DNA of 64,000 nt from Dehalococcoidia bacterium (GCA_030615625.1 JAUWYX010000002.1:82722-146721), one strand, 5' to 3'. Numbered from the stretch's first letter, positions 6,974 to 52,249 are shown. The notes: generated from the sequence alone by a model not told the origin. Numbers and translations: made by a program.

Positions 6974-7015
6974 AGGCTCGCTGAGGCAAACAAATAATGT
7001 CGAGGTGTTTTTAAA

Positions 7016-7627: not shown

Positions 7628-8009
7628 GGCTTTTGAGAAGACCCTGGCATTTGCCTAGCCCAAGACTTATCTTAATCTAACCAGCACCGGGTATTTATCA
7701 GGTCAATCGACCACCTTGTTCCTCAAGCTATTGGATACCCCGGGCACACCACCATCTTAAATATTAGTAATAGTCTAGTTTTTCCTGAAAGCTGCATATA
7801 ATTTGCCCTGTTCTATACGTTCCGGCTCCACATTTTTGTAGTTGCCCCGATTTCATCGGGGCTAGTAATCACCGCCCCAACAAGGTTGACCAAGACGGAG
7901 ACGTGCCCGATGACCCTTACTACTCAGGATAGTGACCTGGAGCAGCTTGTATCACAGTCCTGGGAAACAGGGGTATAATAAACAAGGAAGGGAGAAGACG
8001 AGCAAAGGC

Positions 8010-9731: not shown

Positions 9732-9851
9732 TGATTAGCATGGCCCTTTTTGACTTAAATGGCGCTTTGCCCCTGAAGGCACAGGGAAATTCCGGAGGAA
9801 TGTCAGTTCCTTGACATGCCACCGAATAATTACGAAAAAAGGAGGTTCATA

Positions 9852-10649
9852 ATGGCAGAACAGGACGTACTCTACACCAAGGAGGATAACATTGGCATAA
9901 TAACGCTTAACCGTGCCGAAAAACTGAATGCGCTAACACACGAAATGCTCCGCAGTATTAATTCAATTATCGAAGACATTAAGAAGGATGGCAAGGTGAG
10001 AGCTGTCATACTGACTGGAAACGGTCGTGCTTTCTCTGCTGGAACCGATATCTCAGGCGAAGTGCCACAGACAGCGGAGGTAGAGATAAACCTTATGAAA
10101 GAGAAGACCTCCACAGAGTACCGCCAGTCAATTTGGTTCTTCAACAGTATTCCCAAGCCAGTGATTTGCGCCATCAACGGGGCCGCCGTAGGCATTGCAG
10201 CCGAATTTTCACTACATTGCGATATCAGAATCGCTGCTGAAAGTGCCAGGTGGGGACAGGTGTTCGTCTTGAGAGGCATGACACCGGACACCGGCGCAGG
10301 GACTTATCTTCTACCTCGCATCGTGGGACTATCCAAAGCCTGTGAACTGGTATTCTCAGGAGATATCATCGACGCTCAAGAGATGCTGCGAATAGGACTG
10401 GTGAGCAAAGTTGTGCCTGACGCAGAATTGATGCCCACAGCTATAGCAATGGCCAAGAAGCTAACCAGAGGTGCCCCTTTAGCAGTACAGATGGCTAAGC
10501 AATTGATGTATAGAGGCCTTGAGCAAACCATGGAAGCTCACCAGGAGGCTGCGCGCTACTGCTTCCAGTTAAGTTGCAAGACAGAGGATGTCCAGGAAGG
10601 CATCGTATCCTTCTTTGAAAAGAGGGAGCCTCGCTGGAAAGGCAAATAG
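9852..10649 (+). CDS. Enoyl-CoA hydratase/isomerase (crotonase) family protein
   Basis: Crotonase-fold motifs (ITLNRAEKLNAL, AVILTGNGRAFSAGTDI, ICAINGAAVGI). The ATG at 9852 follows AAAGGAGG. Confidence 0.8.
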   Translation: MAEQDVLYTKEDNIGIITLNRAEKLNALTHEMLRSINSIIEDIKKDGKVRAVILTGNGRAFSAGTDISGEVPQTAEVEINLMKEKTSTEYRQSIWFFNSIPKPVICAINGAAVGIAAEFSLHCDIRIAAESARWGQVFVLRGMTPDTGAGTYLLPRIVGLSKACELVFSGDIIDAQEMLRIGLVSKVVPDAELMPTAIAMAKKLTRGAPLAVQMAKQLMYRGLEQTMEAHQEAARYCFQLSCKTEDVQEGIVSFFEKREPRWKGK

Positions 10650-10810
10650 CCTGTCAGTCAGTGCGTTTGCCTGTCTTGAAGGCTCCCGAGGTTTCGTGGA
10701 GGAGAAAGCCTGTTTTTAACGCGAAATAGGAACACTTATGCCTGCGTGAATGTGCTGGATTAACCGCTTAGATGCTATAATCAAAACAAATAACAGAAGG
10801 AGGAAACACG

Positions 10811-11821
10811 ATGTTTAAAACACGCATAACCGAGCTTTTCGGTATCAAGTATCCTATCACCCAGGGTGGAATGATGTGGATTTCCCGGGCAGAACTGGTA
10901 GCCGCAGTGTCCAACGCCGGAGGGCTCGGCATTATCACGGCATTTACATTTCCAACCCCCGCGGAGCTGGCCGCTGAAATCAAAAAGACCAGAGCACTTA
11001 CTGATAAGCCCTTCGGGGTAAATATAACGCTGTTGCCCACTCTTCACCCTGTGGATATTGACGGCTATTTAGATGCGGTCATCAATTCTGGAATAAAGAT
11101 TGTGGAAACAGCCGGCAGAAGCCCGGAGCCATATATGGAGCGGCTTAAGGCGGCTGGAGTAAAGGTGATACACAAGTGCACCGCAGTCCGCTTCGCTCGC
11201 ACCGCTCAGCGAATAGGCTGCGACGCCGTTAGCATTGATGGTTTTGAGTGCGCCGGACACCCTGGCGAAGAGGACGTTACTTCCCTCGTCTTGATTCCTC
11301 TGACTGCTGATGCTGTAGAAATTCCCGTTATTGCCTCTGGAGGCTTCGGCGATGGGCGTGGTCTTGTTGCCGCCCTGGCACTGGGAGCAGAAGCAGTCAA
11401 TATGGGTACCCGCTTCATGGCAACTAAAGAGGCGCCAGGACATGCCAAAGTAAAAGAATTCTTAATCACAGCATCGGAGCGTGACACAGTATTGTTGCTG
11501 CGCTCATTCCGTAACACGATGAGAGCATTGAAAAACCCCACAGCCGAAAAGGTGCTCGAGCTGGAAAAGCAAGGTGCCGATATACATCAACTGGAATCGC
11601 TCATCAGTGGTAGGGTAGGTCTGAACCTGCTTGAATCAGGTGATATCGATAACGGCTTGCTTAGCGTGGGGCAGGTAATAGGCCTTGTTCATGACATTCC
11701 CACGGTCAAGGAGTTGATAGACAGGATAGTAAAGGAAGCTGAGGAGGTTGTCTCCAATATAGCCGCCGGCGGCATTTTCAAGCCACTGCGCAAGCCGACT
11801 GATGTCGCAAATAAGCAGTAA
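10811..11821 (+). CDS. Nitronate monooxygenase / 2-nitropropane dioxygenase (NMO, FabK-like) family flavoprotein
   Basis: N-terminus MFKTRITELFGIKYPITQGGMMWISRAELVAAVSNAGGLGII is the NMO family signature. RBS AGGAGG upstream. Confidence 0.75.
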   Translation: MFKTRITELFGIKYPITQGGMMWISRAELVAAVSNAGGLGIITAFTFPTPAELAAEIKKTRALTDKPFGVNITLLPTLHPVDIDGYLDAVINSGIKIVETAGRSPEPYMERLKAAGVKVIHKCTAVRFARTAQRIGCDAVSIDGFECAGHPGEEDVTSLVLIPLTADAVEIPVIASGGFGDGRGLVAALALGAEAVNMGTRFMATKEAPGHAKVKEFLITASERDTVLLLRSFRNTMRALKNPTAEKVLELEKQGADIHQLESLISGRVGLNLLESGDIDNGLLSVGQVIGLVHDIPTVKELIDRIVKEAEEVVSNIAAGGIFKPLRKPTDVANKQ

Positions 11822-29520: not shown

Positions 29521-29718
29521 GGTTTCCCTCTGCTCTGTTTTCAATTTAAGGATAATCGGGCACTATAAATTAAATACTTATTTCTTGTCAAATTTCGTGC
29601 ACCTGCTGATACCTTGTCAGGTGTCGCCTTGGTAGCTCCTCATGTTTGGCCTATATATCTATATTTTCTCCCTGCAGATTAGGCACAAGCAGCTTGCACT
29701 CCCTTTTACTGAGCTAAT

Positions 29719-29790
29719 CGGGGCGAGAGGACTTGAACCTCCGACCTCAGCGTCCCGAACGCTGCGCGCTACCAACTGCGCTACGCCCCG
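29719..29790 (-). tRNA. tRNA-Pro (anticodon CGG)
   Basis: Reverse complement reads CGGGGCGTAGCGCAGTTGGTAGCGCGCAGCGTTCGGGACGCTG...GGTTCAAGTCCTCTCGCCCCGA. It has a 7-bp acceptor stem and D-loop AGTTGGTAG. Anticodon stem CAGCG/CGCTG has loop TTCGGGA (anticodon CGG). T-loop GGTTCAAGTCC. CCA is not encoded. Confidence 0.8.
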
Positions 29791-29833
29791 TTTGCCTATG
29801 CTATTATATGATGCTTTAACTATTGAGGCAAGG

Positions 29834-31018
29834 GTGAAATATTGCGTTTTAATAATTGATGGAGCATCAGGTTGGCCATTGGCTGCTCATGGTGGGAGGA
29901 CTTGCCTGGAGCTGGCGCATACTCCGAACATGGATGCTATGGCAAAGGCGGGTGCTGTCGGGCTGCTTCGCACCGTGCCGCCGGGGATGGAACCTAGCAG
30001 CGCCTGTGCCTGTATGTCCGTGCTGGGTTATGACCCTCAGGTATATTACCAAGGCCGGAGCGCCATTGAGGCTCGTGGCATGGGCGTTCCTATTAACAAA
30101 GGAGAGATCGTTTTTCGCTGCAATTTGGTAGCCGTTCGCAACGGGAGAATGTGGAGCTATAGTTGCGGGCATATCAGTACTGGCGAAGGCCGAGCTCTTA
30201 TCGCTAGTTTGAATGAAAAGCTTGGCAGCGATAAAGTGCATTTCTATCCTGGTGTGAGCTATAGACATATATGTAAGATAAAAGGGAAGGAAGATGCCCT
30301 CCTGGCTAGCTGTACTCCACCGCATGATATTCCCGACAAAGCTATTGACGAATTTCTTCCCAAAGGGCCTGGGAGCGACCTGTTAAGAGAGCTTATGGCA
30401 CGCTCTGAGCTTGTGCTTCGTGACCATCCTGTGAATATGGAGCGAGGAGCACGCGGCGATATTCCAGCTACCATGGTCTGGCTTTTCTGGAGTAGTGGTA
30501 AAATACCTGATATGCCAGCCTTCAAAGAGGTCTATGGACTCGATGCTGCTATAACGTCCGGAGTGGATATTATGCGGGGCTTAGCCCGAATGACAGGTAT
30601 GCGGGTGATGGATATTTCCGGTGTGACCGGCGGTCTGGACAACGATTACGTTGCTCAGACAATTGGTGCCCTGGAAGCACTTGGGGAATATGATATGGTG
30701 GTTATTCATGTGGAAGCAACCGATGAGTCGGCCCATGCCGGCCTAGTTAAGGACAAAATAGAGGCCATTCAGAGCGTGGATAAAGAGGTTGTGAGTCGGC
30801 TTCGTTCCTGGAACAGGGATGCCCTCCGGGTGCTAATTCTGCCTGACCACTCCACGCCGATCAAGATTCAGACCCATGTTGCTGACCCCGTTCCATTTAT
30901 ACTCTGGGGGCCGGGATTCACAGCTAGTGGGGCAAAGAGATTTACCGAAGCAGAGGCTAAAGGCACAGGCTTTTTTGTCGAAGAAGGATATAGTATTATG
31001 GGCAGGCTGATAGAGTAA
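29834..31018 (+). CDS. apgM: Cofactor-independent phosphoglycerate mutase, archaeal type (ApgM; alkaline-phosphatase superfamily)
   Basis: VKYCVLIIDGASGWPLAAHGGRTCLELAHTPNMDAMA matches the ApgM N-terminus (MKYxxLIxDGxAD). GTG start at 29834 after a GAGGCAAGG RBS. The longer ORF from 29642 would overlap the tRNA. Confidence 0.7.
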   Translation: MKYCVLIIDGASGWPLAAHGGRTCLELAHTPNMDAMAKAGAVGLLRTVPPGMEPSSACACMSVLGYDPQVYYQGRSAIEARGMGVPINKGEIVFRCNLVAVRNGRMWSYSCGHISTGEGRALIASLNEKLGSDKVHFYPGVSYRHICKIKGKEDALLASCTPPHDIPDKAIDEFLPKGPGSDLLRELMARSELVLRDHPVNMERGARGDIPATMVWLFWSSGKIPDMPAFKEVYGLDAAITSGVDIMRGLARMTGMRVMDISGVTGGLDNDYVAQTIGALEALGEYDMVVIHVEATDESAHAGLVKDKIEAIQSVDKEVVSRLRSWNRDALRVLILPDHSTPIKIQTHVADPVPFILWGPGFTASGAKRFTEAEAKGTGFFVEEGYSIMGRLIE

Positions 31019-39581: not shown

Positions 39582-41786
39582 GTGAAAAAGATATTTAGTA
39601 TCCTTTTTGCCCTGGTGCTGGTGGTGAGTTTGGGGCTGGCGTCGACGGCGCCAGTTTTGGCAGATGTTATTGATGTGCCCGGTGACTACCCCACTATCCA
39701 GCAAGCCATTGATGCTGCCTCGGATGGTGACACCATCATGGTGGCGGCGGGTTTGTATGAAGAGAATGTTGAGATTGACAAGTCGTTGACCTTAAAGGGC
39801 GCCCAGGCCGGGGTTGATGCCCGCAACCGCAGTGGCGCTGAGACGATTATTGAACCAGATGAAGGAACAGGGATAAGAATAATTACCGCTGACGACCGAG
39901 ACATCGAGATTGATGGTTTGACGGTGCAGAACGCTGAGCATGGAATCGCGACTCCGGAACCTGAAATGGCCGCTGATATTACCGTCAAAAACGTACGCGT
40001 GTTAAACCCCAGTGAATTCGGGATTAGCCTCACCTTCACCCTGAGAGCAACGATTGAGTATTGCTATGTGGAAGGTGCGACACAAGCCATTAACGCGGGT
40101 GCCCTCGAGCCGTTTCCTCCGACTGTGGCGACCTTCAGGAACAACAAAGTCGTTAACTCGAGGTTTGGCATCACCGGGTACCTCGAAGAAGATTCGCTTA
40201 TCGAAGGCAACGAGGTGAGGGACTTCGTTGCTGGGGGCATAGGCATCAGTGGGTCGTTCCTTAACACCGAAATCAGGAATAACACAGTAACCGGCTATGT
40301 CGATGGCGCGGGCATGAGTTTCGAGGAGCACTACGGCCGCGACCTTTCTGAGAATGTGACTGTGGAAGGTAATACCTTCACAGAGAATAAGCTCGGTATC
40401 TATGTGTTTGATACGCAGACAACACTTACTGGAATCACCGTTAATTTCAACAACATCGCCGACAACTCTCGGTATGGTGTGTGGAACGAGGGAGGCGAGA
40501 CACTGGACGCCACCAAGAACTGGTGGGGCGCTGCCAGCGGACCCGGTAGAGTGGGACCGGGTGACGGCGATGGCGTCTCTACAAAGGTGTTTTACTCGCC
40601 GTGGCTGGGTGCCCAGGTCGGCACCGAGCCAATGACCTGGGGCGTGGACCCGACGAGTTCTATCCAGGACGCCATTGATGCGGCAGCCCATGGCGACACC
40701 ATCATAGCGGCGGAGGGGAAATACGAGGAGGACTTGAATATCGACAAGTCTCTGAACCTCCAGTCGGCAGGCGGGATTGAAGTGACTACTATTACCGGCT
40801 CTGTCAGTATAGAACTGGACGCTGAGATAGTCTTCATTGGTGGAGATGACGCTGGGTTCACCATCGATGCTGATGGTGGTGACTTCGCCTTATGGTTTTC
40901 CATCAACAATGAAAGCGAGGTCTCCATCAGTCACAATGTACTCGCTGGTGCTGTAGATGGCATAACCACCCGGAGCGGCCTGCTGGACAACAGCACCGTC
41001 ACCATCGGGGATAACCAAATCCACGAAAATGACTACGGAATCTACCTGGAATCCGTTGCCGGCGACAGCACCGTGCTCATCAACTCTAACCGCCTCGCTG
41101 GAAACGACGGTTACGGGCTCTACGTCGAAGACAGCGCCGTTATCGTTGACGCCACCTCCAACTGGTGGGGCGATGCCAGCGGACCCAGTGGTGGCGTGAC
41201 CGATCCTGTTACCGGAAAGATTGCGGATGGCACCGGAGATGCTGTTTCGGAACATGTCCACTTTGACCCCTGGCTGCTGACTTATCAATATGCCCTCACA
41301 ATCTCCAGCACCGGTGGGGGTTCAGTAGTCGTCCCTGGCGAGGGGATTTTTACCTATGAGCCTGGAACGGTGGTTGACCTGATAGCGATTACAGACACTT
41401 TCTATAACTTCTACGCGTGGACTGGAGATGTGGGCAACATCGCTAATGTCAACGGCGCAGCAACCAACATCACTATGAACGACAACTATTCTATAACAGC
41501 CAACTTCAATTTTGGGCCGTTTGGGTGGTGCTTCATCGCTACCGCAGCCTACGGTACCGATACAGCAAAGGAGTTAGCCATCCTGAGAGAGTTCAGGGAC
41601 GAGGTCCTGCTGCCTAACAGCTTGGGTGTTATGCTTGTATCTCTCTACTATAAAACCAGCCCTTTCATAGCCAACTTTATCTCCCAACACGAGGTCCTGA
41701 GAACAGCGGTGAGAGTGGGCTTCGTTGACCCAATTGTGAAAATATTAACTTGGACTCAGGGTTTATGGTTGGCGGGAGGCTCATGA
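39582..41786 (+). CDS. Secreted right-handed beta-helix (pectate-lyase/NosD-like) protein with two beta-helix modules, one InlB-B-type repeat and the conserved C-terminal module
   Basis: Signal peptide MKKIFSILFALVLVVSLGLA. There are two modules beginning PGDYPTIQQAIDAASDGDTIMVAAGLYEE and SSIQDAIDAAAHGDTIIAAEGKYEE. Each ends with the NWWG-ASGP...F-PWL motif. The InlB-B-type repeat is ...VVDLIAITDTFYNFYAWTGDV...ITANF. The C-terminus is WCFIATAAYGTDTAKELAILREFRD...SPFIANFI. GTG start with a GGGGGAGAAG RBS. Confidence 0.6.
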   Translation: MKKIFSILFALVLVVSLGLASTAPVLADVIDVPGDYPTIQQAIDAASDGDTIMVAAGLYEENVEIDKSLTLKGAQAGVDARNRSGAETIIEPDEGTGIRIITADDRDIEIDGLTVQNAEHGIATPEPEMAADITVKNVRVLNPSEFGISLTFTLRATIEYCYVEGATQAINAGALEPFPPTVATFRNNKVVNSRFGITGYLEEDSLIEGNEVRDFVAGGIGISGSFLNTEIRNNTVTGYVDGAGMSFEEHYGRDLSENVTVEGNTFTENKLGIYVFDTQTTLTGITVNFNNIADNSRYGVWNEGGETLDATKNWWGAASGPGRVGPGDGDGVSTKVFYSPWLGAQVGTEPMTWGVDPTSSIQDAIDAAAHGDTIIAAEGKYEEDLNIDKSLNLQSAGGIEVTTITGSVSIELDAEIVFIGGDDAGFTIDADGGDFALWFSINNESEVSISHNVLAGAVDGITTRSGLLDNSTVTIGDNQIHENDYGIYLESVAGDSTVLINSNRLAGNDGYGLYVEDSAVIVDATSNWWGDASGPSGGVTDPVTGKIADGTGDAVSEHVHFDPWLLTYQYALTISSTGGGSVVVPGEGIFTYEPGTVVDLIAITDTFYNFYAWTGDVGNIANVNGAATNITMNDNYSITANFNFGPFGWCFIATAAYGTDTAKELAILREFRDEVLLPNSLGVMLVSLYYKTSPFIANFISQHEVLRTAVRVGFVDPIVKILTWTQGLWLAGGS

Positions 41787-41866
41787 ACGTAACAGCAATC
41801 CCGGGCACTAAGTAAACCCTAGGGGGAGCCATTGTAGTTGAGGCAAGCCCGACAAAACTTCGAAAA

Positions 41867-41903
41867 ACCGCTTGACGGTATAGAGGATGTGATATAATAA
41901 TTC
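41867..41903 (+). promoter_or_regulatory. Putative sigma-70-type promoter (CTTGAC -35, 18-nt spacer, extended -10 TGATATAAT) of the second beta-helix gene
   Basis: AAAACTTCGAAAAACCGCTTGACGGTATAGAGGATGTGATATAATAA, with the same architecture as the element 1 promoter module. Confidence 0.5.
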
Positions 41904-42010
41904 AGAAAATTGTAACATGCATTTAATTAACAGGATTTTAACACAAATAGTTTATTATACTGTAAGCCGAAGATTTTGGGGAAAGTGAACTGTTACGAAG
42001 GAGGTGAAGA

Positions 42011-43630
42011 ATGAAAAGGATATTTAGTATCCTGTTTGCCCTGGTGCTGGTGGTGAGCCTGGGGCTAGTGATGGCGACGCCGGTTTCGGCAGGCAACATT
42101 ATTCATGTGCCCGATGACTACGAAACTATCCAAGAAGCCATTGATGCGGCAGGCTCTGGCGACACCATCACAGTGGCGGCGGGGACATGCGCCGCCTTCC
42201 AGGTGCAGGGAAAGACAAATATAAGCATAATCAGCGCTGAGGGGGCAACCGTTACTACCGCAAACTGTTTTACGGTTGACATCGGGCCAATAGTAGGGGA
42301 CGTATGGGTCATGGCTGCGGTGAATGCGTCAGAAAACATCAATATTGAGGGTATTAACTTTGATGGAACCGAGCTCAGCGAAGAAGAAAATGTTTGCGGC
42401 ATCGCCTACCTTGACAGCACAGGGAGACTTGCTGACCTGACGATGGCAAACATTATCGGCACCGAATGGTATTTGGGGGGGGTGGCTATCATAGGTGATG
42501 TCGGCACCTCTGTGGTGAACCTCTCAGGCGTCACCGTCGAGAACTCAGGTGCGGGTGTCGCCATATTGAATGCTGAGACCAATCTTGACGGCTGTACCAT
42601 TACAGAGAATTGGCTAGCAGGTATCCTAATAGGTTGGCCGCTTGACGGGTTCGATCCGTCCACTGCAGAGGTGAAAGGGTCCACAATCTCTAACAACTAC
42701 GGTACAGGCATAGCTGTTTTCGATGATTCTACCCTGGAAGCTCACTTCAACAACATCGTCGGCAACACTGATTTTGGTTTGTGGAACGATGGAGGTGGGA
42801 CGGTGGACGCCACCTACAACTGGTGGGGCGATGCCAGCGGACCATACCACCCCATAGCTAACCCTGGCGGTGAGGGCAATCCCGTCAGCGATGATATGAA
42901 TTTCGAGCCCTGGCTGGAGGCTGAGGCGGTAACAGAGACGGTAACCGATGGCACCGTTGATGCCACGGACGAGGCTGACACCGAGGTTGAGGTAGACGGC
43001 ACAGCTACGGTAACCGTGGCTCCGTATGACGATAATCCCGGCGGGTCCGCTCCAACCGGCTTCAGCTCACAGGATAAATATATCGATGTCTACGTTCCCG
43101 ATACTACGGAAGTCACCGAGCTTGAGATAAGGCTTTACTATACCGATGCTGAAGTAGAGGCGGCAGACGTCGACGAAGAATCGCTACGGCTCTTCTGGTG
43201 GAACGACACTGCCTGGGTGCAGTGCTCAGACGGCGGAGTCAATACCGCCAGCACCAATGGCTACAGCGGTTATATGTGGGCAAAAATAAGAAATAATACC
43301 ACGCCGTCTCTGGCCGACTTGCAGGGGACGGAATTTGGTGGTTATGGCCATCCGTCGGAAACTCCGGGAGGTTGTTTTATCGCTACCACAGCCTACGGTA
43401 CCGATACAGCCAAGGAACTAGACATCCTGAGAGAGTTCAGGGACGAGGTTCTGCTGCCCAACAGCCTAGGCGCCGAGTTTGTATCTCTCTATTATAAAAC
43501 CAGTCCGCCCATAGCCAACTTTATCTCCCAACACGAGGTTCTAAGAACAGCGGTGAGGGTGTGCTTTATTGACCCGATTGTGAAAGTATTAAATTGGAGC
43601 CACGATTTATGGTCGGCGAGAGGCTCATGA
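42011..43630 (+). CDS. Secreted beta-helix protein, paralogue of 39582..41786 with a divergent central region and the same C-terminal module
   Basis: The signal peptide and first ~55 codons are ~85% nucleotide-identical to the upstream paralogue. It has the NWWGDASGP motif, an acidic Thr/Glu/Asp-rich linker, and the C-terminal GGCFIATTAYGTDTAKELDILREFRD...SPPIANFI. The last ~260 bp plus the 3' flank are ~90% identical to 41535-41830. Confidence 0.6.
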   Translation: MKRIFSILFALVLVVSLGLVMATPVSAGNIIHVPDDYETIQEAIDAAGSGDTITVAAGTCAAFQVQGKTNISIISAEGATVTTANCFTVDIGPIVGDVWVMAAVNASENINIEGINFDGTELSEEENVCGIAYLDSTGRLADLTMANIIGTEWYLGGVAIIGDVGTSVVNLSGVTVENSGAGVAILNAETNLDGCTITENWLAGILIGWPLDGFDPSTAEVKGSTISNNYGTGIAVFDDSTLEAHFNNIVGNTDFGLWNDGGGTVDATYNWWGDASGPYHPIANPGGEGNPVSDDMNFEPWLEAEAVTETVTDGTVDATDEADTEVEVDGTATVTVAPYDDNPGGSAPTGFSSQDKYIDVYVPDTTEVTELEIRLYYTDAEVEAADVDEESLRLFWWNDTAWVQCSDGGVNTASTNGYSGYMWAKIRNNTTPSLADLQGTEFGGYGHPSETPGGCFIATTAYGTDTAKELDILREFRDEVLLPNSLGAEFVSLYYKTSPPIANFISQHEVLRTAVRVCFIDPIVKVLNWSHDLWSARGS

Positions 43631-43689
43631 GCGTAACAGCAATCTCGGGCACTAAGTAAACCCTAGGGGGAGTGAAGAGAAACGGTGTA

Positions 43690-43714
43690 AGAGCCGAGGC
43701 TCAGCCTCGGCTCT
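43690..43714. repeat. Palindromic hairpin element (10-bp stem GAGCCGAGGC / GCCTCGGCTC)
   Basis: AGAGCCGAGGCTCAGCCTCGGCTCT. A second, near-identical 13-bp-stem copy lies at 58379-58408. No U-tract follows. Confidence 0.5.
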
Positions 43715-44119: not shown

Positions 44120-44911
44120 ATGGCAAATCTAAAACAAATCGATGAGGCGTTGACTTATTATGTGCGGCCACAAACCTTTCCACTTGCGATCAGGATGTGC
44201 GAATCCAAAGAAGAACTCCCTGATAAGACTAGGACACCCCAAAAAGACATAGGAATAACTGTTTCGTTGTGTCACGCAATTAATATGGCGCGGCGCTATG
44301 GCTGGACTATAGCTGTTGACAAGTTTCAGAGCTGTTACGTTGCTGGTATAAGTATGGGATTCTTACCTCTGCTGCCAGATGTCGTTGATGGGAGCTTCCA
44401 GGAGTCCCTTGGGTTATGGGGAATGAACAAAAAACAGGCAGCAGCGGCTATTCAAAACCTTCCCAAATTTGAATATGGTAAGTACAAGAATGTACTCATG
44501 AGTCCTCTAAACAGAGCTACCTTCGAACCACATCTTATCCTGGTTTATGGCAATCCCGCTCAAATATGGATGCTCCTTACGGGTTACCTCACTGGGACAG
44601 GTAAGACAGGTCTAGACACCACTTTGGCTATAGGAGCCGGATGTACAACCTATATCACCCGGACTATCGAAAAAGACGAGTGCCAATTCGCCTTGTTAAG
44701 CCTTGGTGAACGGCTGATTCCTCACACTCAAGATTATGAATGTGCCTTTTCGATACCCATGAGCAAGATTGAGAAAACGATTCAAGGTTTGGAAATAGGT
44801 CATAAGATTGGTGTTTTCAGGTATCCGCTTCCCACGTTTTTGAGATATGACTCACCGCATCCACCCGGATATGACAAAATGCTGAGTCATCTGCTGGGAA
44901 AAGAATCTTAG
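44120..44911 (+). CDS. DUF169-family (COG2043-like) protein
   Basis: About 263 aa, with size and sequence character consistent with DUF169; assignment from memory and tentative. RBS AAAGGAGG. Confidence 0.4.
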   Translation: MANLKQIDEALTYYVRPQTFPLAIRMCESKEELPDKTRTPQKDIGITVSLCHAINMARRYGWTIAVDKFQSCYVAGISMGFLPLLPDVVDGSFQESLGLWGMNKKQAAAAIQNLPKFEYGKYKNVLMSPLNRATFEPHLILVYGNPAQIWMLLTGYLTGTGKTGLDTTLAIGAGCTTYITRTIEKDECQFALLSLGERLIPHTQDYECAFSIPMSKIEKTIQGLEIGHKIGVFRYPLPTFLRYDSPHPPGYDKMLSHLLGKES

Positions 44912-44934
44912 CGAGGCGGGTCTCAGCCCTTATC

Positions 44935-45005
44935 CCCAATTTGCCGATTCTTTTGCCAATCCAAAAAATTCCGAAAAATGCTTGCCAGCGCGGGGCGTGA
45001 TATAA
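44935..45005 (+). promoter_or_regulatory. Promoter module (A-tract, CTTGCC -35-like, extended -10 GTGATATAAT) shared with element 1
   Basis: TTTTGCCAATCCAAAAAATTCCGAAAAATGCTTGCCAGCGCGGGGCGTGATATAATATG parallels the 3' half of element 1 (TTTTTACCAATCCGAGAAATTCCAAAAACTCTTGATGG...GTGATACAATAG) and the GCGCGGGGGGTGTGATATAATA box at 6317-6341. Confidence 0.5.
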
Positions 45006-45072
45006 TATGAACCAAGATTCTGGAAAGCTAAACCATTACAGATTTAGTTATCCATTGAGCAAGGAGGGAACA

Positions 45073-46605
45073 ATGAGGACAAAAGAGCAGTATATACAGG
45101 GTCTGGCAAAAATGAAGCGAAACATTTACTTCAATGGCGCGCTAATCGACCATACAGACGAGCTACAGATGGACTGTATAAATACCATCGGCACCACATT
45201 TGACGAGGCTCTCAAGCCAGAGAACCAGGACCTGTGCACCGCCATTTCTCATCTCACCGGCGAGCGTATCAGCCGCTTCACCCACATCCACCAGAACACC
45301 GACGACCTGCACAAGAAGCAGGACATGACCCGCATGCTCTGCCAGAAGGTAGCCGGCTGCATCCAGCGGTGCATGGGCATTGACGCCACCAATGCCGTCT
45401 ACAACGTTTCTTACGAAGCGGACAAGATGAACAAAGGCGCCACACAGTACCACGAGAACTTCAAGAAGTGGCTTATTCGCTTCCAAACAGAAGACCTGGT
45501 GGGCTGCTGCGCCCAGACGGACGTCAAGGGCGATAGGATGCTCAGGCCTGCTGACCAGCCAAACCCGGATGCCTACGTACGGATTAAAGAGAGGCGCAGT
45601 GATGGCATCATCGTCAGCGGCTGCAAGTTACACATCTCCGAGGCATCAGTTGCTGATGAGATACTGGTGGTGCCGACACGAGCGTTGCGTCCAGAGGACA
45701 AGGACTACGCCGTCGCCTTCGCCATCCCGGGCGATTGGGAAGGACTGAAACAGATTGTTACCGTCCATAACCTCAGGCCCAGAGAACACTTCAAGCGTGG
45801 CTTCCTGCCCGGAGCCACAGATTCCTATATGATATTTGACAACTGCTTCGTGCCCTGGGAAAGAGTCTTCCTCGCCGGCGAATGGCAGCATGGCGGCGTG
45901 CTGGCTCTCCTCTTCGCCCTTTTCCACCGCCACTCCTATTCTGGCTGCAAACCGGCTCTTGGCGACGTACTTTTGGGAACCGCGTCACTTGCTGCCGAGG
46001 TGAATAACATCCACAAGACACCCGGCGTCCGGAAGAAGCTGGCTGAAATTATCATGGTCACCGAGCTGGGTTATGCTGCGGGATACACAGCCTCTGCCCT
46101 GGGCAAGCCAGAGGTCTACATACCCGGGGTGGGATTTGTGCCCTATGGCCCCGGCTCCTATATACCCAATTCAATTTACTGCAACGTCGGCCGCTGCCTG
46201 ACGGGTGAGGCAGTCTATCATGAAGCTGAGATGCTCTGCGATATCACCGGCGGCGTGGTAGCCACCTTCCCACACGAGAAAGATTTCCTGAACCCCGAGA
46301 CCCGTGACTTTCTACTGAAATACACAAAGCGCAATCCGGACATGCCCGTGGAGGATCAGGCACAGCTATGGCGTTATCTGAGTGATGTGCTCTGCTCAGC
46401 GACCGGAGGCATACACAATGTCGGCAGTTACCATGGTGGTGGCTCACCTATCATGGAACAAATCGCCATCACTACCCAGTACGACATCGAGTCCAGGAAG
46501 AAGCTGGTCAGGTACATCGCCGGCATGAGCGGTGGCGACCCTGATGCCCTGAGCAAAAAGATGACTCAGCCAAGCAAGATACCCGCCGAGGCAGCCAGGC
46601 GGTAA
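45073..46605 (+). CDS. 4-hydroxybutyryl-CoA dehydratase / 4-hydroxyphenylacetate 3-hydroxylase (HpaB/AbfD) family flavoprotein
   Basis: MRTKEQYIQGLAKMKRNIYFNGALI..., FTHIHQNTDDLHKKQDMTRMLCQKVAGCIQRCMGIDATNAVY, and DKDYAVAFAIPGD closely parallel the AbfD-type family. ATG at 45073 after AAGGAGGGA. Confidence 0.7.
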   Translation: MRTKEQYIQGLAKMKRNIYFNGALIDHTDELQMDCINTIGTTFDEALKPENQDLCTAISHLTGERISRFTHIHQNTDDLHKKQDMTRMLCQKVAGCIQRCMGIDATNAVYNVSYEADKMNKGATQYHENFKKWLIRFQTEDLVGCCAQTDVKGDRMLRPADQPNPDAYVRIKERRSDGIIVSGCKLHISEASVADEILVVPTRALRPEDKDYAVAFAIPGDWEGLKQIVTVHNLRPREHFKRGFLPGATDSYMIFDNCFVPWERVFLAGEWQHGGVLALLFALFHRHSYSGCKPALGDVLLGTASLAAEVNNIHKTPGVRKKLAEIIMVTELGYAAGYTASALGKPEVYIPGVGFVPYGPGSYIPNSIYCNVGRCLTGEAVYHEAEMLCDITGGVVATFPHEKDFLNPETRDFLLKYTKRNPDMPVEDQAQLWRYLSDVLCSATGGIHNVGSYHGGGSPIMEQIAITTQYDIESRKKLVRYIAGMSGGDPDALSKKMTQPSKIPAEAARR

Positions 46606-46680
46606 CAGGTAAGCCTTTCCCAAAAACCTGAAGGGGTCTCTGGCTCATCAGCTTGCTGGAGACAGTTTCCAAAATGGCCG
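46602..46680. repeat. Element 1 copy c (5' part only, truncated)
   Basis: CAGGTAAGCCTTTCCCAAAAACCTGAAGGGGTCTCTGGCTCATCAGCTTGCT, immediately after the stop of the AbfD-family gene. Confidence 0.55.
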
Positions 46681-46749
46681 CCGATATAAATCTTGATAAG
46701 CTGGGCGTTAGTATGTCATTCCTAGCCAACTTATAAATATTATGTCAAT

Positions 46750-46927
46750 CAGATCAGAACTGCAAATCCCCCGTGGTTTGGCTCTGCCGATGGTTTCGCA
46801 AAATCAAACTATCCTTACCGGGTCGACATCTATAGTCCAGCCCCGCGGCAAAGTGAGCCGGGATAACATCCGAGTTGAGTCAGGGCCGCGGAGGAAGAGT
46901 TGCCAGCGATACCGGCCCCTGGCCCTG
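46750..46927. repeat. Element 2 copy (degenerate duplicate of the priA 3' end plus downstream sequence)
   Basis: CAGAACTGCAAATCCCCCGTGGTTTGGCTCTGCCGATGGTTTCGCAAAATCAAAC...GGGTCGACATCTATAGTCCAGCCCCGCGGCAAAGTGAGCCGGGATAACATCCGAGTTGAGTCAGGGCCGCGGAGGAAGAGTTGCCAGCGATACC matches 58006-58200 and, from AATCAAACC onward, the native priA 3' end at 61609-61740. Confidence 0.65.
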
Positions 46928-47005
46928 CTCCCTTGAAGTTCTGTACCCTACGCTATGATCCGAAGCCTCAATTCCTACCTTTGAGCTTTGAGGCGTTCGA
47001 TGTGC

Positions 47006-48118
47006 TCAAATCCCATCCAGCCGGTGAGACACCCTCTCCTCCGTTATCCCCAGTTTGGCGGCAATTTCCTTCTTCTCCAGCCCAGCTTTCTTCAACCTGA
47101 ATATCTCCTTTGTCTGTTTTCCCTTCTCTTCCTTTCTGCCAGCTATTTCCTTTATGTCAAAGATGTGCCCTATCGCTTTTGTCTCTATAAGCTTCTTCTC
47201 TTCCATGCCGGCAAAGACCTTCTCGCCCGCTTCAGTCCGGATTATCACTGTTGACCACCCCTCGGCGGAGCCATCGCTGCCGATGGCGATATCGGCCAGG
47301 TCAACAGCGAAATCCCGGCAAACCAGGCAATGCCTGGGGACACAGCTCTTGACCTCGGTTATGGGCAAAGACAGCTTCTTCCCGCCGGCATATATGTTGA
47401 ACTCATCGGAAATATCCAGCTTATCTACCTGGTTGATATCCACCCCCTTTGCTCTGACTTTCTCTGCTATACCGGCATATTCGTAGTTTTCGCGGCAGAA
47501 CAGTCCTACGGTAAGTTTCACCGGTGATGCCAGAGGTAGGCCTTTGTGCTTCAGGTATCTTATCGACTGTATATGGCACGGGGAACCCACAACGCAGATT
47601 TTGCTCAGTCCGCGGTCAACAACAGCAGCTCGCAACGCCTTCAGCACCGGCACCACGCCGTATTTGGTACCAGCTGCCTGGATAATCTCATCCCTGGTCC
47701 TGGCAATACAGGCTATCGGTGCCCAGCCGTCTCTGCCAACTACCAGTGCCCCGTCTATGACGCCGCTGTCCAGTGCGTACAGAAGTAGCGTGGTTACGAT
47801 TCCACCGTTCTGGCAGGTTCTTTCAATTTCTGTGTCTTTTGTTCTTGCCGTCACCGCACGCCTGTATAGCCCTATTCTTTCCTTTTTTCCCCAGCCGATG
47901 GTGCTGCCCTCTATAGCCTTCATCAGATCGTGCCTGAGCATGTAGCAGGCTTCGTAACAGATACTGCAACCCACGCAATCCATGGTGCGCTTGGTCCGCT
48001 TCGGCTTGCCCTCAACAAACTTGATGTGAAAGCTGGGGCAGGCCAGAATACATGCCCCACATACCGTGCACTCCCCCGTGTCTATTATCTTGGCCTCTAA
48101 ATCTTCATAGCTCGGCAT
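47006..48118 (-). CDS. F420-hydrogenase/dehydrogenase beta-subunit-like (FrhB/FdhB family) FeS-flavoprotein with C-terminal helix-turn-helix
   Basis: N-terminal 2x[4Fe-4S] ferredoxin motifs (CTVCGACILACP, CVGCSICYEACY), a FrhB_FdhB core, and C-terminal KKEIAAKLGITEERVSHRL (HTH-like). The ATG at 48118 is preceded by AGGAG. Confidence 0.55.
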   Translation of the reverse strand: MPSYEDLEAKIIDTGECTVCGACILACPSFHIKFVEGKPKRTKRTMDCVGCSICYEACYMLRHDLMKAIEGSTIGWGKKERIGLYRRAVTARTKDTEIERTCQNGGIVTTLLLYALDSGVIDGALVVGRDGWAPIACIARTRDEIIQAAGTKYGVVPVLKALRAAVVDRGLSKICVVGSPCHIQSIRYLKHKGLPLASPVKLTVGLFCRENYEYAGIAEKVRAKGVDINQVDKLDISDEFNIYAGGKKLSLPITEVKSCVPRHCLVCRDFAVDLADIAIGSDGSAEGWSTVIIRTEAGEKVFAGMEEKKLIETKAIGHIFDIKEIAGRKEEKGKQTKEIFRLKKAGLEKKEIAAKLGITEERVSHRLDGI

Positions 48119-48378
48119 ATATTTATACTCCTGCTTCGGGAATAACAAGCCAGGCTATTTTACCAGACATAGTTTCAGGATGTCAGACTCACCCTGACTC
48201 AGATGTGCACCACGCGATCTTAATAGGCCACAACTACATGTTTGATAAGCACAGCAGAACATGCCCTAGGTGTCTCCTGTTCTCAGGAGCTACACCACAC
48301 AATACGAATCCTGAAGGTCACTCATGGACCGAGGGCACACAGGCAGATGTTCCATACTACACCTAAAAGCTATTCGCT

Positions 48379-50067
48379 CTACTTTAGTTCCCCGCTGGCT
48401 TTCATCCTGGCTATCTCTTCTTCCCTCAATTGCCTCTTGAATAGCTTCAGGGTGACGGTGAGAGGTAGCTCTTCCCTGAACTCAATGAATTTGGGCACGG
48501 CATAAGCTGGCAGCTTCTCCCGGCAGTGACCGATTATCTCTTCGGCTGTCACTTTCCCCCGAGCCTCTTTTTTTAGCCTGATGAAAGCTTTTATCCTTTC
48601 GCTGCCCGGGCGCTCTGGGTCAGGAATCCCAATCGCCACCGCATCGCCAACCGCCGGGTGTTCATACAGAGCGTCGTCAACCAGCCTGGTGTAGACTTTG
48701 AGTCCAGATATATTGGCCATATCCTTGAGCCGGTCTGTGATGTAGAAATAGCCATCCTCTTCCATTCTTACCACATCACCGGTGGGCAGCCAGCCGTCAA
48801 CAAGCCCTTTACCCACCTCAGGCCAATAGCCAATCATTATCTGCGGTCCACGAACCCACAGCTCACCTTCTTGCCCCGGGGCCACCTCCTGACCTGTGTC
48901 CAAGTTTACAATTTTGACATCTGTATCCGGCAAGGGAATGCCTATGGAACCAAACTTTTCGAAAGGCATGAAGCCCGTGATTTTGGAGAAAGATGAAAGG
49001 TTAATGTGTGTACCACCACCGGTTTCGGTTAGCCCATAGGCTTCGGTTACGGGCACACCAGTTTCTTGCCTGAATTTCCGAGCAATCTCGGGAGCCAGCG
49101 CTGCTGTTGTGGAGAAAAACATTGTGGTAATCCTGCCAAGCCCTTGAGCTACAAGCCGTGAGTATTGAGTCGGCACGCAGGCACAGAAAAAGGGGCGATA
49201 CTTCGTCAACATCTGCGCCAGAGTGTCAATGTCTCTCGGGTCGGGAAGCAAGTAACACTTGAGCCCCCAGTAGACACCGAAATGCATAAGTAAGTGACCA
49301 TACGTATGAAAAAGAGGAATGGGGATCATGCCCGAAGCCTTGCCCTTGATTCCAACTTTTAAGGGCTCATATGCCCACGCAGTCTGTATCACTGCCGCTA
49401 TTCGATTATAATGGGTCAACATTACTCCCTTGGGTAAGCCAGTGGCGCCTCCTGTGAATGGTAGGACAGCCAGGTCTTTCATTGGATCGATGTCAACATC
49501 AGGAGGCTTGGGCTCATGGCTGTCTATTAATTCACGGAATTGATATGTGTTTGGTATTTTTTTCAACTCCGGCTCTTCCGATGAATAATCCATGACAGAG
49601 GTGACTATTATGTTCTTGATCTTGGTTCTGTCCTTTATTGAATCTACCGTCTCCAGGGACATCTCGGTGCAGATAACTGTCTCAGCTTCTGATTCACCGA
49701 TCTCGTATGTCAAGTCAGCGGCCTTGTGCATAACGCTGCATGGGACATGGGCTGCCCCGGTTTTCATAATCCCGAAGTCGCTTATCATAAACTGCGGGCA
49801 ATTTGGTAGAACGGTGGCTACTTTGTCGCCTTTCTTAACACCTAAATCAACCAGTGCCGCAGCCAACCTGTCGCTAAGAAGCTTCATCTCGCTATAAAGG
49901 ATTTCTTTCCCCAGATAGAAACAGGCAGCTCTGTCAGGAAACTCAGCCGCAGTGGCATCCAGAAGGCTGTGGGCAGTCATCTTTGGATAAGGTTCTCTTG
50001 TCTGCGGAAGCTTGTACGGCCCCATCTTATATTGCTTTAACCAGGGTTTTTCAGCCATAGCGACCAC
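48379..50067 (-). CDS. AMP-dependent synthetase/ligase (acyl-CoA synthetase)
   Basis: AMP-binding motif FTGGATGLPKGVMLTHYN and the C-terminal ANL superfamily domain. Confidence 0.8.
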   Translation of the reverse strand: MVAMAEKPWLKQYKMGPYKLPQTREPYPKMTAHSLLDATAAEFPDRAACFYLGKEILYSEMKLLSDRLAAALVDLGVKKGDKVATVLPNCPQFMISDFGIMKTGAAHVPCSVMHKAADLTYEIGESEAETVICTEMSLETVDSIKDRTKIKNIIVTSVMDYSSEEPELKKIPNTYQFRELIDSHEPKPPDVDIDPMKDLAVLPFTGGATGLPKGVMLTHYNRIAAVIQTAWAYEPLKVGIKGKASGMIPIPLFHTYGHLLMHFGVYWGLKCYLLPDPRDIDTLAQMLTKYRPFFCACVPTQYSRLVAQGLGRITTMFFSTTAALAPEIARKFRQETGVPVTEAYGLTETGGGTHINLSSFSKITGFMPFEKFGSIGIPLPDTDVKIVNLDTGQEVAPGQEGELWVRGPQIMIGYWPEVGKGLVDGWLPTGDVVRMEEDGYFYITDRLKDMANISGLKVYTRLVDDALYEHPAVGDAVAIGIPDPERPGSERIKAFIRLKKEARGKVTAEEIIGHCREKLPAYAVPKFIEFREELPLTVTLKLFKRQLREEEIARMKASGELK

Positions 50068-50078
50068 GATATCACCCC

Positions 50079-51935
50079 CTATACCTTATCGATTACATAA
50101 TCCAGATTCAGATCCTTGAGCTTTTCCGGCGTTGGCTTTCCGGTCTTTTTGTCCCAGCCGCGGAACTCATAATAGGCATCCAGCGACTGGTCTAATTTTT
50201 TCACCATATGTCCCTGGGCAGCACCCTCAGGTAATGGCTCCTCAAGCAATCGCTTCGGCAGAGTATCATCTGCCCTGGTCAGGCCGTCCCTGACGCTGAA
50301 AGCTCTCGCCAGGTTATAGACCCTCTCCCCGGCTTTTCTGAAATCGTTGACACTAAACTCCCAGCCAACGCAGTTGGCTATCATGTCAACCCAGTCTTCG
50401 GCAGCCAGTGCCATGCCCATGAACTTGCATGTCCCCACGCAATCGAAGACGGTGAGGGCATCTTCGAGGTCTTTGACCACCTTAGCCTCGGCAGGATTTT
50501 CCACAATCCAGTCTTCGATTCGGCTATCTTCAACACACAGGAAAGGAATATCTACGAAGGCTGGCCCTTCAACGTAAGCTGTAATATGGTCGCCGCCGCG
50601 GTTAGCCGTGGCAAATGCCAGACCGCATATCTTGGCTGCCCTAGGGTCATAAGCCGGCAACTCCAGCCCTTTGACGTGCATGGCAAACCTTTCCGCGCCC
50701 TTGTCCAGCTTCGCCGCTACTCTCTTAGTCCCTTCAGCCAGCAGGTCACCAATACCTTCCCTTTTGGCTATCTTGTGTATGAGCTGAATGACAACATCTG
50801 GCTCACCGAATTTCATCTCCAGCCCGTCGGTATCAGCTTTGGTCAATATCCCTTTTTCATAGCACTCTATGGCAAAGGCTATAGTGCTCCCGGTAGAGAC
50901 TACATCCAGCCCGTAGTCATCGCACAAGTTATGTGCCAGTGTCACTGCCTCAAGGTTCTCCAGCGCGCACATGGCACCAAAGGCGCCGATTGTTTCATAT
51001 TCCGGCCCTTCACCCTTACAGGCATAAGGACCGCTCTTCACCACACTTACCCTGCAGCAGCTAATGGGACAGGCGTAGCAATGCTTCCTGTCCACCAAGA
51101 GCGTGCTTTCCAGCGTGATTCCACTTATTTTGTCTATATCCGGCACAACGCCGGTCTGCCAGTTCCTGGTAGGAAACCCTCCCCTGACGTTTACCAAATC
51201 GGTAACCATGGCCGTCCCGTAGGTCTCGAGAGTAATCTTCAGCAGGCTTTCATTAACCAGGTCATAGTTCCTCTTCGAGATTTGGCTGAAAGCATCTTTG
51301 TTGGCTATTTTAATCTCCTGTGTCCCTCTGGCAGCCACTGCCTTCAGACGTTTCGACCCCATTACTGTCCCAACACCACATCTCCCGGCAGGCCGGTGAA
51401 CATCATTGAAAATACCGGCATATCTGACTAAGTTCTCACCAGCTATGCCAATGCAGGCAACATTGAAGTCCTCACCCAGTTCTTCTCTAATTAGCCTGTA
51501 TGTTTCACCAACACCTTTGCCCCAGAGGTGCTTGGCGTCTCTGAGTTCGACTTTGCCGTCATCTATTACCAGGTAGACCGGCTTGGGTGATATACCTTCG
51601 AAGATAATCCCGTCGAAACCTGAGTTTTTCAGGTAGACTCCCCAGCTACCCCCCGAGTTCGCCTCTGCCCAGAAACCGGTTAGAGGCGACTTGGTAACTA
51701 CACAATATCTTCCGGCGCTTGGTGATTCTGTGCCGGTCAAGGGCCCGGTCATAAAAATAAGCTTATTGTCGGGTCCAAGTGGGTCAGTGCCTTTGGACAC
51801 TTCGTCGAAAAGGTATTTTGTTGCCAGTCCGCTCCCTCCCAGGAACATCTTGCAGTCATCCTCTTTAAGAGCCTCTTCTGATACCTTGCCGTTTGTTAAA
51901 TCAACCCTGAGTATCTGTCCCATGTAACCGAACAT
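50079..51935 (-). CDS. Tungsten-containing aldehyde:ferredoxin oxidoreductase (AOR family)
   Basis: MFGYMGQILRVDLTNGKV N-terminus, AOR_N plus pterin-binding domains, and Cys ligands for the 4Fe-4S cluster. The ATG at 51935 follows GGAGGA. Confidence 0.85.
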   Translation of the reverse strand: MFGYMGQILRVDLTNGKVSEEALKEDDCKMFLGGSGLATKYLFDEVSKGTDPLGPDNKLIFMTGPLTGTESPSAGRYCVVTKSPLTGFWAEANSGGSWGVYLKNSGFDGIIFEGISPKPVYLVIDDGKVELRDAKHLWGKGVGETYRLIREELGEDFNVACIGIAGENLVRYAGIFNDVHRPAGRCGVGTVMGSKRLKAVAARGTQEIKIANKDAFSQISKRNYDLVNESLLKITLETYGTAMVTDLVNVRGGFPTRNWQTGVVPDIDKISGITLESTLLVDRKHCYACPISCCRVSVVKSGPYACKGEGPEYETIGAFGAMCALENLEAVTLAHNLCDDYGLDVVSTGSTIAFAIECYEKGILTKADTDGLEMKFGEPDVVIQLIHKIAKREGIGDLLAEGTKRVAAKLDKGAERFAMHVKGLELPAYDPRAAKICGLAFATANRGGDHITAYVEGPAFVDIPFLCVEDSRIEDWIVENPAEAKVVKDLEDALTVFDCVGTCKFMGMALAAEDWVDMIANCVGWEFSVNDFRKAGERVYNLARAFSVRDGLTRADDTLPKRLLEEPLPEGAAQGHMVKKLDQSLDAYYEFRGWDKKTGKPTPEKLKDLNLDYVIDKV

Positions 51936-51985
51936 GTTTGCTCCTCCTTTTTTTTTGCTCGCATGTGCTCCTAAACTGGTCTTTT

Positions 51986-52249
51986 TCACTCTTCGAATTT
52001 TGTCTTGACAGCATCCATTCGCCGCACACGGTGGATTGTCTCAAACGGCGTCTGCGTCAAGTGGAGGACTCGTCTCAATACCTTCTCATCAGGTGCCTCC
52101 CACTCACAGAAGTGCTTGTTTCCAGCGAAATCGCAGTAACTACACCTCCAGGAGACGCCTTTTGGCATGTAATTGGGTGCGGCCTTAGCGCGTGCAATCA
52201 ACTCCTCCTCAGTGAACGGTGCCTTATGAACAACTATAAAACGTGGCAT
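51986..52249 (-). CDS. DUF4242-family small protein
   Basis: MPRFIVVHKAPFTEEEL...HFCEWEAPDEKVLRRVLH resembles DUF4242 (MPxFMDVH...FCLxEAPD...VH). Confidence 0.45.
   Translation of the reverse strand: MPRFIVVHKAPFTEEELIARAKAAPNYMPKGVSWRCSYCDFAGNKHFCEWEAPDEKVLRRVLHLTQTPFETIHRVRRMDAVKTKFEE

Follow-up and report, generated by a model that had tools for sequence, protein, structure and literature searches.

Three genes in a 64,000-nucleotide stretch of DNA from a Dehalococcoidia bacterium (GCA_030615625.1 JAUWYX010000002.1:82722-146721; the whole stretch is called the window here) encode secreted proteins that end in the same conserved module. One is an esterase-like protein, and the other two, encoded by adjacent genes, are β-helix proteins that we refer to as A and B. 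The first-pass annotation of the window had recognized the shared module and left it outside any named family. We found that the module is CFI-box-CTERM, which NCBIfam catalogues as NF041770. The three open reading frames (ORFs) and their C-terminal sequences are exactly as they had been quoted, and a six-frame motif scan of the 64 kb located three CFI-box modules and no more. Their Cys codons are at 5916, 41529 and 43373, and the ORF stop codons are at 6164, 41786 and 43630. LRxFRD, a motif of the module core, has only one other match, on the minus strand at 58958, which we discarded as chance because no CFI box accompanies it. The genes and modules are as follows.

4617-6164, plus strand: secreted polyhydroxybutyrate (PHB)-depolymerase-like esterase, 515 aa, laid out as signal peptide, esterase domain, InlB B-repeat (Flg_new_2) and CFI-box module (ORF with NF050058, NF041770 and Pfam Flg_new_2 matches)
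5916-6164, plus strand: CFI-box-CTERM module of the esterase, 82 aa from Cys to stop, ending ...DPVVWLVEATGDIWRN, no transmembrane (TM) helix
39582-41786, plus strand: protein A, secreted double β-helix protein (NosD-like), 734 aa, with Flg_new_2 and CFI-box module
41529-41786, plus strand: CFI-box-CTERM module of protein A, 85 aa from Cys, subtype ...ILTWTQGLWLAGGS, no TM helix
42011-43630, plus strand: protein B, secreted β-helix protein (NosD-like), 539 aa, with CFI-box module
43373-43630, plus strand: CFI-box-CTERM module of protein B, 85 aa from Cys, subtype ...VLNWSHDLWSARGS, no TM helix

The NCBIfam model (NF041770.1, model type 'domain', 69 positions, curated cutoff 40 bits) matched the esterase with 91.0 bits (E 3e-26), protein A with 89.9 bits (7e-26) and protein B with 92.9 bits (8e-27). 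These copies cover model positions 1-66/67, and the match in protein A spans residues 650-715. Because the E-values range from 7e-26 to 8e-27, the similarity is far beyond chance. The features that define NF041770, namely the score, a CFI box at the start of the domain and an extreme C-terminal position, were all found in the window, and GenBank relatives at 80-88% identity from Dehalococcoidia metagenome-assembled genomes (MAGs) already bear the name CFI-box-CTERM. It is close to certain that the shared C termini are three copies of this domain. The window thus holds an instance of a family that is already catalogued, not a discovery.

The module had been called uncharacterized, and this description stands: the family carries a name without an experimentally known function, and it follows that the module does not belong to a well-characterized domain with a known, unrelated role. 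A literature search found no publication on CFI-box-CTERM. The module had no Pfam match even at E<=10, a profile search found no relative in the PDB and Foldseek found no PDB match for a model of it. SLH, dockerin, LysM, cell-wall-binding and PEP/PGF tags were absent both from the module (Pfam, E<=10) and from the full window proteins.

All three window proteins have Sec-like N termini on inspection, with a K/R-rich start and an AxA-like site (for example, between MKKIFSILFALVLVVSLGLASTAPVLA and D), and their 12-residue Kyte-Doolittle maxima are 3.3-3.4. As the first-pass annotation had pointed out, the passengers that precede the module are unrelated, a PHB-depolymerase-like esterase in one case and NosD-like right-handed β-helices in A and B. 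The esterase scored 143 bits against NF050058, just below the cutoff of 150, and its Flg_new_2 repeat lies at residues 374-425 (Pfam). The box reads CFIATAAYG in the esterase and protein A and CFIATTAYG in protein B. The tails end in ...DIWRN, ...LWLAGGS and ...LWSARGS, with no cluster of basic residues at the C terminus of the window copies, and hydropathy beyond the core peaks at 0.80-1.16 over 17 residues (1.16 in the esterase copy), compared with 2.0-3.3 in TM-bearing relatives.

Family distribution, core fold and tail forms

To place the window copies in their family, we turned to an exhaustive HMMER search over 1.84 billion cluster representatives. It returned 18,779 representatives (50% identity) at E<=1e-3 and 5,853 at E<=1e-10, nearly all of which match at their extreme C terminus, and a scan of one genome per GTDB species found at least 586 loci. 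The closest relatives belong to Dehalococcoidia and other Chloroflexota. Other carriers include Anaerolineae, anaerobic methanotrophic (ANME) archaea (ANME-1/Methanophagales), Ca. Ethanoperedens and other Halobacteriota, Nitrospirota, Desulfobacterales, Geobacter, Desulfuromonadales, Gallionella, Acidithiobacillales, Dongiaceae and Gammaproteobacteria; one cultured carrier is Clostridium magnum DSM 2767, with a 1107-aa protein on NZ_LWAE01000002.1 (locus L056, 6992-10315). Among 203 relatives, about half of which have Gly immediately before the Cys, the length from the Cys to the C terminus peaked sharply at 82 residues (92 cases) and 85 residues (31 cases). A hydrophobic N terminus was present in 85 of the 98 relatives that look full length, and a Gly/Pro-rich linker usually precedes the domain. 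At least 49 Pfam passenger families were found among 108 members, mainly the InlB B-repeat (26 members), β-helix, PKD, RCC1, Ig-like, cohesin, Kelch/β-propellers and carbohydrate-binding modules. The domain is the C-terminal end of Sec-exported, multi-domain, surface-type proteins. The proposal that it is modular, strictly C-terminal and attached to secreted proteins with unrelated passengers was therefore borne out, both by the diversity of N-terminal domains and by the Cys-to-end distances.

The core comprises about 69 residues and opens with an almost invariant nonapeptide, C-F-I-A-T-A-A-Y-G, followed by the consensus LRxFRD...G..V..YY..SPP.A..I...R....P.V. An AlphaFold2 model of module B (88 residues, 31-sequence alignment) was a compact all-helical bundle with a predicted local distance difference test score (pLDDT) of 80 and a predicted template modelling score (pTM) of 0.67; its helices span residues 6-14, 16-30, 34-55, 58-78 and 80-84. 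Numbered from the Cys, residues C, A4, R23 and Y40 were invariant in the alignment of 108 HMMER matches, and about 28 more columns were conserved at 90% or above. This alignment was not selected by motif, and the invariant Cys at the module start, claimed previously from three sequences, holds throughout it. Across phyla, C, G9, Y40, Y41, S44, P45, A48, I51, R62 and P68 were 96-100% conserved. The core is a conserved, selected unit regardless of what comes after it.

What comes after it differs among members, as we saw from the C-terminal ends of 96 CFI-box ORFs at the loci retrieved. At least 34, from Nitrospirota, Desulfobacterota, Gallionella, Dongiaceae, Clostridium magnum and Chloroflexota, continue past the core into a hydrophobic helix and an Arg/Lys tail (for example, ...YPLISVFLVLMSVMSAAVLRRKKISN). 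These TM-bearing members match the full model (1-69 of 69) at 101-109 bits, and their CFI box forms the part of a type-I C-terminal tether that lies outside the cytoplasm and next to the membrane. The TM-less form, to which the window copies belong, ends in ...DPIVKILNWSHDLWS(ARGS) or ...DPVVWLVEATGDIWRN with a short Trp-containing helix and is common in Dehalococcoidia. TM-less members are also common in ANME archaea, where, as in some Nitrospirota, shorter or hydrophilic endings occur. The 82- and 85-residue TM-less variants are a single TGA/AGA change apart. Both forms can be found in one MAG (L016 versus L040 and L076). In one protein (P0112), a helix of the TM-less type continues into a TM helix and RRRVA, so that the TM-less form looks like a shortened version of the tethered one. 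The earlier statement that the module is not a simple TM-plus-basic-tail signal is thus correct for the window copies but does not extend to the wider family, where a TM helix with a basic tail is very frequent.

Two further forms have no large passenger. P0171 (112 aa) consists of a lipoprotein-type signal peptide (…FLAVGC) and a CFI box and nothing else. A stand-alone CFI-box gene of 103-111 aa, without a signal peptide, lies 14-27 nt 3' of guaA and before purD-purE-purB. It was found in two divergent Dehalococcoidia-like lineages (L011, 9920-10255; L081-L086, 4001-4312 in L081; L087-L090), with the N-terminal leaders MPKRKDWAVFDLWRQKESGWR and LPNQREPEKGWWKGLDAYPPK, and one variant is present on 16-17 contigs. 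From its sequence and gene order, the product is apparently cytoplasmic and in a housekeeping context. Other unusual forms proved to be artefacts. In the 'double CFI-box' proteins P0077, P0090 and P0181, a second signal peptide comes after the first TM helix with its basic tail, which shows that tandem genes had been called as one. The short CFI ORFs in L006 arise from frameshifts that break up larger genes. At 4600-10813 of that locus, syntenic β-helix/CFI-box genes are split into many short ORFs; this breakage is probably frameshift sequencing error and a source of spurious short 'CFI-box proteins' in databases.

Shared tract and surroundings of genes A and B

The modules of A and B are also similar as DNA. 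Positions 41529-41828 align with 43373-43672 at 87% identity over 300 nt, starting at the Cys codon and ending 42 nt past the stop, and identity in the coding part is 85.5%. The first-pass annotation had put the similarity at ~90% and its extension at ~45 bp; similarity beyond the stop codon was indeed found, but the figures are 85-87% and 42 nt. The distant copy is alike only as a protein, as had been noted: the esterase shares just 35-93-nt blastn fragments with A and B, and protein identity between its module and module B is 58%. As mosaic paralogues, genes A and B also share the signal-peptide region (80% over 189 nt) and NWWG-motif segments (84-95%), and a nucleotide comparison detected nothing in common between the shared segments. 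The 'NWWG(D/A)ASGP' segment follows each β-helix domain (40446-40543, 41145-41185 and 42746-42843); it keeps its 84-95% nucleotide identity between A and B and within A, and the surrounding β-helix DNA is not alignable.

Comparison of modules A and B gave a nonsynonymous rate (dN) of 0.093 and a synonymous rate (dS) of 0.439 (dN/dS 0.21). Module B resembles the orthologous copies in L004/L006 (88-90%) more than it does module A (85%). Recent gene conversion, which might have produced the sharp boundary of similarity, is ruled out by the dS of 0.44 and by the closer relationship of module B to its orthologues. Because of the same two observations, the A-B similarity is best attributed to an old duplication or module shuffling under purifying selection. 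They also bear on whether the shared module might be a local duplication artefact or a chance likeness confined to three genes. The adjacent genes are indeed paralogues, with a common signal-peptide region and NWWG segments. However, neither the divergence of the two modules nor the position of module B nearer the orthologues of other MAGs fits such an artefact, and the curated NCBIfam model, the 18,779 cluster representatives and the loci in many phyla refute the idea of a module restricted to three proteins, leaving it a negligible probability.

The tract past the stop codon and the intergenic elements near it are listed here.

41787-41828, plus strand: conserved 42-nt 3' flank of module A (nucleotide alignment)
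43631-43672, plus strand: conserved 42-nt 3' flank of module B (nucleotide alignment)
41872-41901, plus strand: promoter-like site TTGACG-18-AATAAT between genes A and B (consensus match only)
43691-43713, plus strand: near-perfect GC-rich hairpin GAGCCGAGGCT-C-AGCCTCGGCTC, then T-rich TCCCTTTAT, closing gene B

The two flanks differ at 2 of 42 positions, which is unusually similar against a dS of 0.44, and the flank is recognizable after orthologous and paralogous copies in related MAGs. It opens with an ATGA stop/start overlap that begins a 10-codon mini-ORF (MSVTAISGTK), the length of which is kept in most related copies. We rejected a coding role for this mini-ORF, as inspection across the copies showed no third-position bias, and also a structured RNA, given fold z-scores of +1.3 and +0.3 and no Rfam match. 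A conserved 3' untranslated region that may travel with this module subtype is the best reading of the flank. Where a copy is terminal, as in gene B, the flank leads to the hairpin, whereas after gene A it gives way to the promoter-like site, the sequence of which is conserved with L002. The hairpin, which is kept after terminal copies in L001, L002, L004, L006 and L008 but fails the T-run rule of the terminator scan, is a likely terminator.

The whole window shows 83-94% nucleotide identity and synteny with Dehalococcoidales and Dehalococcoidia MAG contigs. On the 3' side of the β-helix genes, 44120-51989 is an anaerobic-metabolism gene block with DUF169, an HpaB-like member of the 4-hydroxyphenylacetate 3-hydroxylase family, an F420-hydrogenase β-like protein, an acyl-CoA ligase and an aldehyde:ferredoxin oxidoreductase-like protein; synteny of the DUF169 and HpaB-like pair is kept in L006. 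Just 3' of the CFI-box esterase lie two adjacent ORFs, 6434-6973 (plus strand, 179 aa) and 7016-7627 (plus strand, 203 aa), which begin with a near-identical N-terminal signal/anchor, MSGST[RK]KKLLASLSALLAAIMIFAT, but show no relationship beyond it; Pfam and NCBIfam gave no match for either. The sole RNA gene found in the window is a tRNA-Pro (CGG) at 29718-29790 on the minus strand. It overlaps the 5' end of a mechanical ORF at 29642-31018 (plus strand), whose true start is probably further downstream.

Candidate functions and comparison with known systems

We looked for a partner of the CFI box in a neighbour survey that covered all ORFs of 80 CFI loci (~1 Mb). Two clusterings of these ORFs gave no recurrent neighbour except secreted InlB-repeat paralogues; the rest were antisense shadow ORFs and generic ATP-binding cassette (ABC) ATPases. 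Among the 69 neighbours with multiple TM helices, a Pfam scan found only assorted transporters and no recurrent protease or transferase, and none of CPBP, sortase, exosortase and rhomboid recurred. A motif-plus-TM filter over the neighbours retained 2 ORFs, both unrelated. One gene of the window is of interest as a possible processing enzyme.

3581-4204, minus strand: CPBP/Rce1-like intramembrane protease, 207 aa (Pfam PF02517, 1.5e-13)

This gene is divergent from the esterase gene and lies 413 nt upstream of it. Its best NCBIfam model is the archaeomyxosortase MrtA (NF040590; 80.3 bits, E 2.1e-22, positions 7-182 of 194). The match is suggestive in that C-terminal tags with a Cys, such as MYXO-CTERM and CGP-CTERM, are proposed to be handled by myxosortase-type CPBP proteases. 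By Pfam, the protein is a generic CPBP; it is not a member of the MrtA family, for which the cutoff is 200 bits, and jackhmmer found a homologue near only 1 of the 80 CFI loci (L026), where it is a syntenic orthologue. We therefore rejected it as a linked sorting enzyme and retain it as a weak lead. The best 120 homologues of the protease are all Dehalococcoidia orthologues, 84-93% identical to it; with at least 120 metagenome clusters (90% identity) in this range, conservation within the lineage is very strong.

The reading that we favour, with a probability of roughly 40%, is that the CFI box acts as a membrane-proximal retention or docking module. The domain is often directly tethered by a TM helix and so sits at the outer face of the cytoplasmic membrane. 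There, the core might serve as an autonomous docking module rather than a spacer and hold the passenger at the membrane through a conserved partner. The most economical partner would be another CFI-box domain that is itself anchored, either a TM-bearing paralogue or a minimal protein of the lipoprotein type; judging by its signal peptide, the P0171-type lipoprotein could be such a docking partner for TM-less CFI-box proteins. The interface may be formed by the invariant CFIATAAYG helix and its Cys, possibly through a disulfide. A self-sufficient docking module is preferred over a tag that depends on an enzyme because no dedicated enzyme gene recurs near the 80 loci. Several observations weigh against docking. 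Nine near-invariant residues, shared from archaea to Proteobacteria, are more typical of an enzyme recognition or reactive site than of an interface between proteins and are explained better by a sorting tag. The stand-alone, signal-less CFI-box genes in purine operons are left unexplained. Direct binding to lipid, which we also considered, is not supported, as the modules are acidic to neutral (pI 4.3-6.8) and the terminal helix is weakly amphipathic, with low hydrophobic moments (0.21-0.41).

The main alternative, which we regard as rather unlikely, is a cleavable, Cys-dependent C-terminal sorting tag, in which a membrane enzyme would cleave at or near the Gly-Cys junction and transfer the passenger or modify the Cys. 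This enzyme could be a myxosortase-like CPBP protein such as that encoded at 3581-4204, and the divergent arrangement of its gene with that of the esterase, together with MrtA as its best model, would fit. Such a tag would also account for the strictly C-terminal position, the many paralogues per genome and the diverse passengers, for the near-invariant motif with its Cys and frequent preceding Gly, and for the TM helix and basic tail of many members. The '-CTERM' name chosen by the curators and a 'choice-of-anchor Z' domain that co-occurs in L052 likewise speak for a tag. However, the motif lies 60-85 residues from the TM helix, inside a folded 69-residue domain, and the window copies and many others have no TM helix with which to stay at a membrane enzyme. 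In addition, the protease scores 80 bits against an MrtA cutoff of 200 and its one homologue in the survey is a syntenic orthologue, and none of the four enzyme classes named above recurs among the multi-TM neighbours. The chemistry might instead reside in the domain itself, if the Cys after Gly performed an N-to-S acyl shift of the Hedgehog/intein or SEA type and the passenger were released or passed to an envelope nucleophile, with no need for a dedicated enzyme. The invariant or frequent Gly-Cys junction, the conserved polar residues T5, Y8, R20, R23, D24, Y40, Y41 and R62, the failure of the 80 loci to yield a partner gene and the presence of the domain in bacteria and archaea with different envelopes, which favours self-contained chemistry, are consistent with this idea. 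We nevertheless consider it very improbable, since the predicted fold is all-helical and about 85 residues long, unlike Hint or SEA, the residue before the Cys is not Gly in half of the members, and Pfam and PDB searches gave no sequence or structural similarity to self-processing domains; for Hint/Hedgehog-intein there was no Pfam match at E<=10 and no PDB match by fold or sequence. In the most novel form of these proposals, a folded helical domain of 69 residues, instead of a short peptide tag, would make the CFI box a new kind of device for Cys-dependent covalent processing or attachment, either self-catalysed or served by a myxosortase-like CPBP protease. We hold this to be rather unlikely.

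A different kind of function is suggested by the stand-alone genes. Because these 103-aa genes between guaA and purD are conserved in two divergent lineages, the domain works without a passenger or a TM helix, and possibly in the cytoplasm. With a role other than retention, it might then be an autonomous ligand-, cofactor- or metal-binding domain, a redox domain or an oligomerizing stalk, with the Cys as a ligand or disulfide former, and the very high conservation of polar and aromatic residues would agree with such a role. By contrast, the overwhelming majority of CFI boxes follow flexible linkers and form the C terminus of secreted proteins with several domains. No CxxC- or His-rich motif surrounds the single Cys, and PDB searches found no similarity to a known binding fold. 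We judge an autonomous function of this kind to be quite unlikely.

The CFI box is among the larger unstudied C-terminal modules of prokaryotic surface proteins, in bacteria and archaea alike. A mode of retention or processing would explain how hydrolases and adhesin-like proteins are displayed by wall-less Dehalococcoidia and by ANME archaea, and knowledge of the function would give a handle for predicting the surface proteomes of both. If the domain were a covalent device, the MYXO-CTERM/CGP-CTERM paradigm would extend to Chloroflexota, ANME archaea, Nitrospirota and many Proteobacteria, with the TM-less and stand-alone forms as variants of the same chemistry. To the existing catalogue entry, this analysis adds the division into TM-bearing, TM-less and stand-alone forms, the result that no partner gene is linked to the 80 loci surveyed and the weak CPBP lead. 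A specialist would recognize the domain instantly from NCBI annotation, and its function is a tractable question.

Among known systems, the self-processing Hint fold is β-rich, starts with a nucleophilic Cys and spans ~130-150 residues, whereas the model of module B is all-helical and has 88. Dockerin-cohesin pairs, SLH domains and cell-wall-binding repeats resemble the CFI box in being small, autonomously folding terminal modules that recur on many secreted enzymes and adhesin-like proteins, and they provide a functional analogy for docking. They share no sequence or fold similarity with the CFI box, which in addition spans entirely different envelopes. The MYXO-CTERM/MrtX and CGP-CTERM/MrtA systems are similar to the CFI box in their C-terminal position on many secreted paralogues and in an invariant Cys near a Gly-rich stretch; the likeness in TM helix and basic tail is limited to the TM-bearing CFI members. 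MYXO-CTERM and CGP-CTERM tags have ~20-35 residues, with the Cys motif abutting the TM helix, whereas the CFI box folds as a domain of 69 residues, and its TM helix is missing, as in the window, or lies at least 60 residues away. The classical tripartite signals (LPXTG/sortase, PEP-CTERM/exosortase, PGF-CTERM/archaeosortase A and GlyGly-CTERM/rhombosortase) share with the CFI box a C-terminal position, diverse passengers and multiple paralogues per genome, often in tandem. Unlike them, the window copies have neither a TM helix nor a basic cluster, and no cognate enzyme was found at the 80 loci; the order of motif then TM helix that marks such signals is missing from the window, and in TM-bearing relatives the motif lies at least 60 residues upstream of the helix. 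The taxonomic range of the CFI box is also much broader than that of any single one of these systems.

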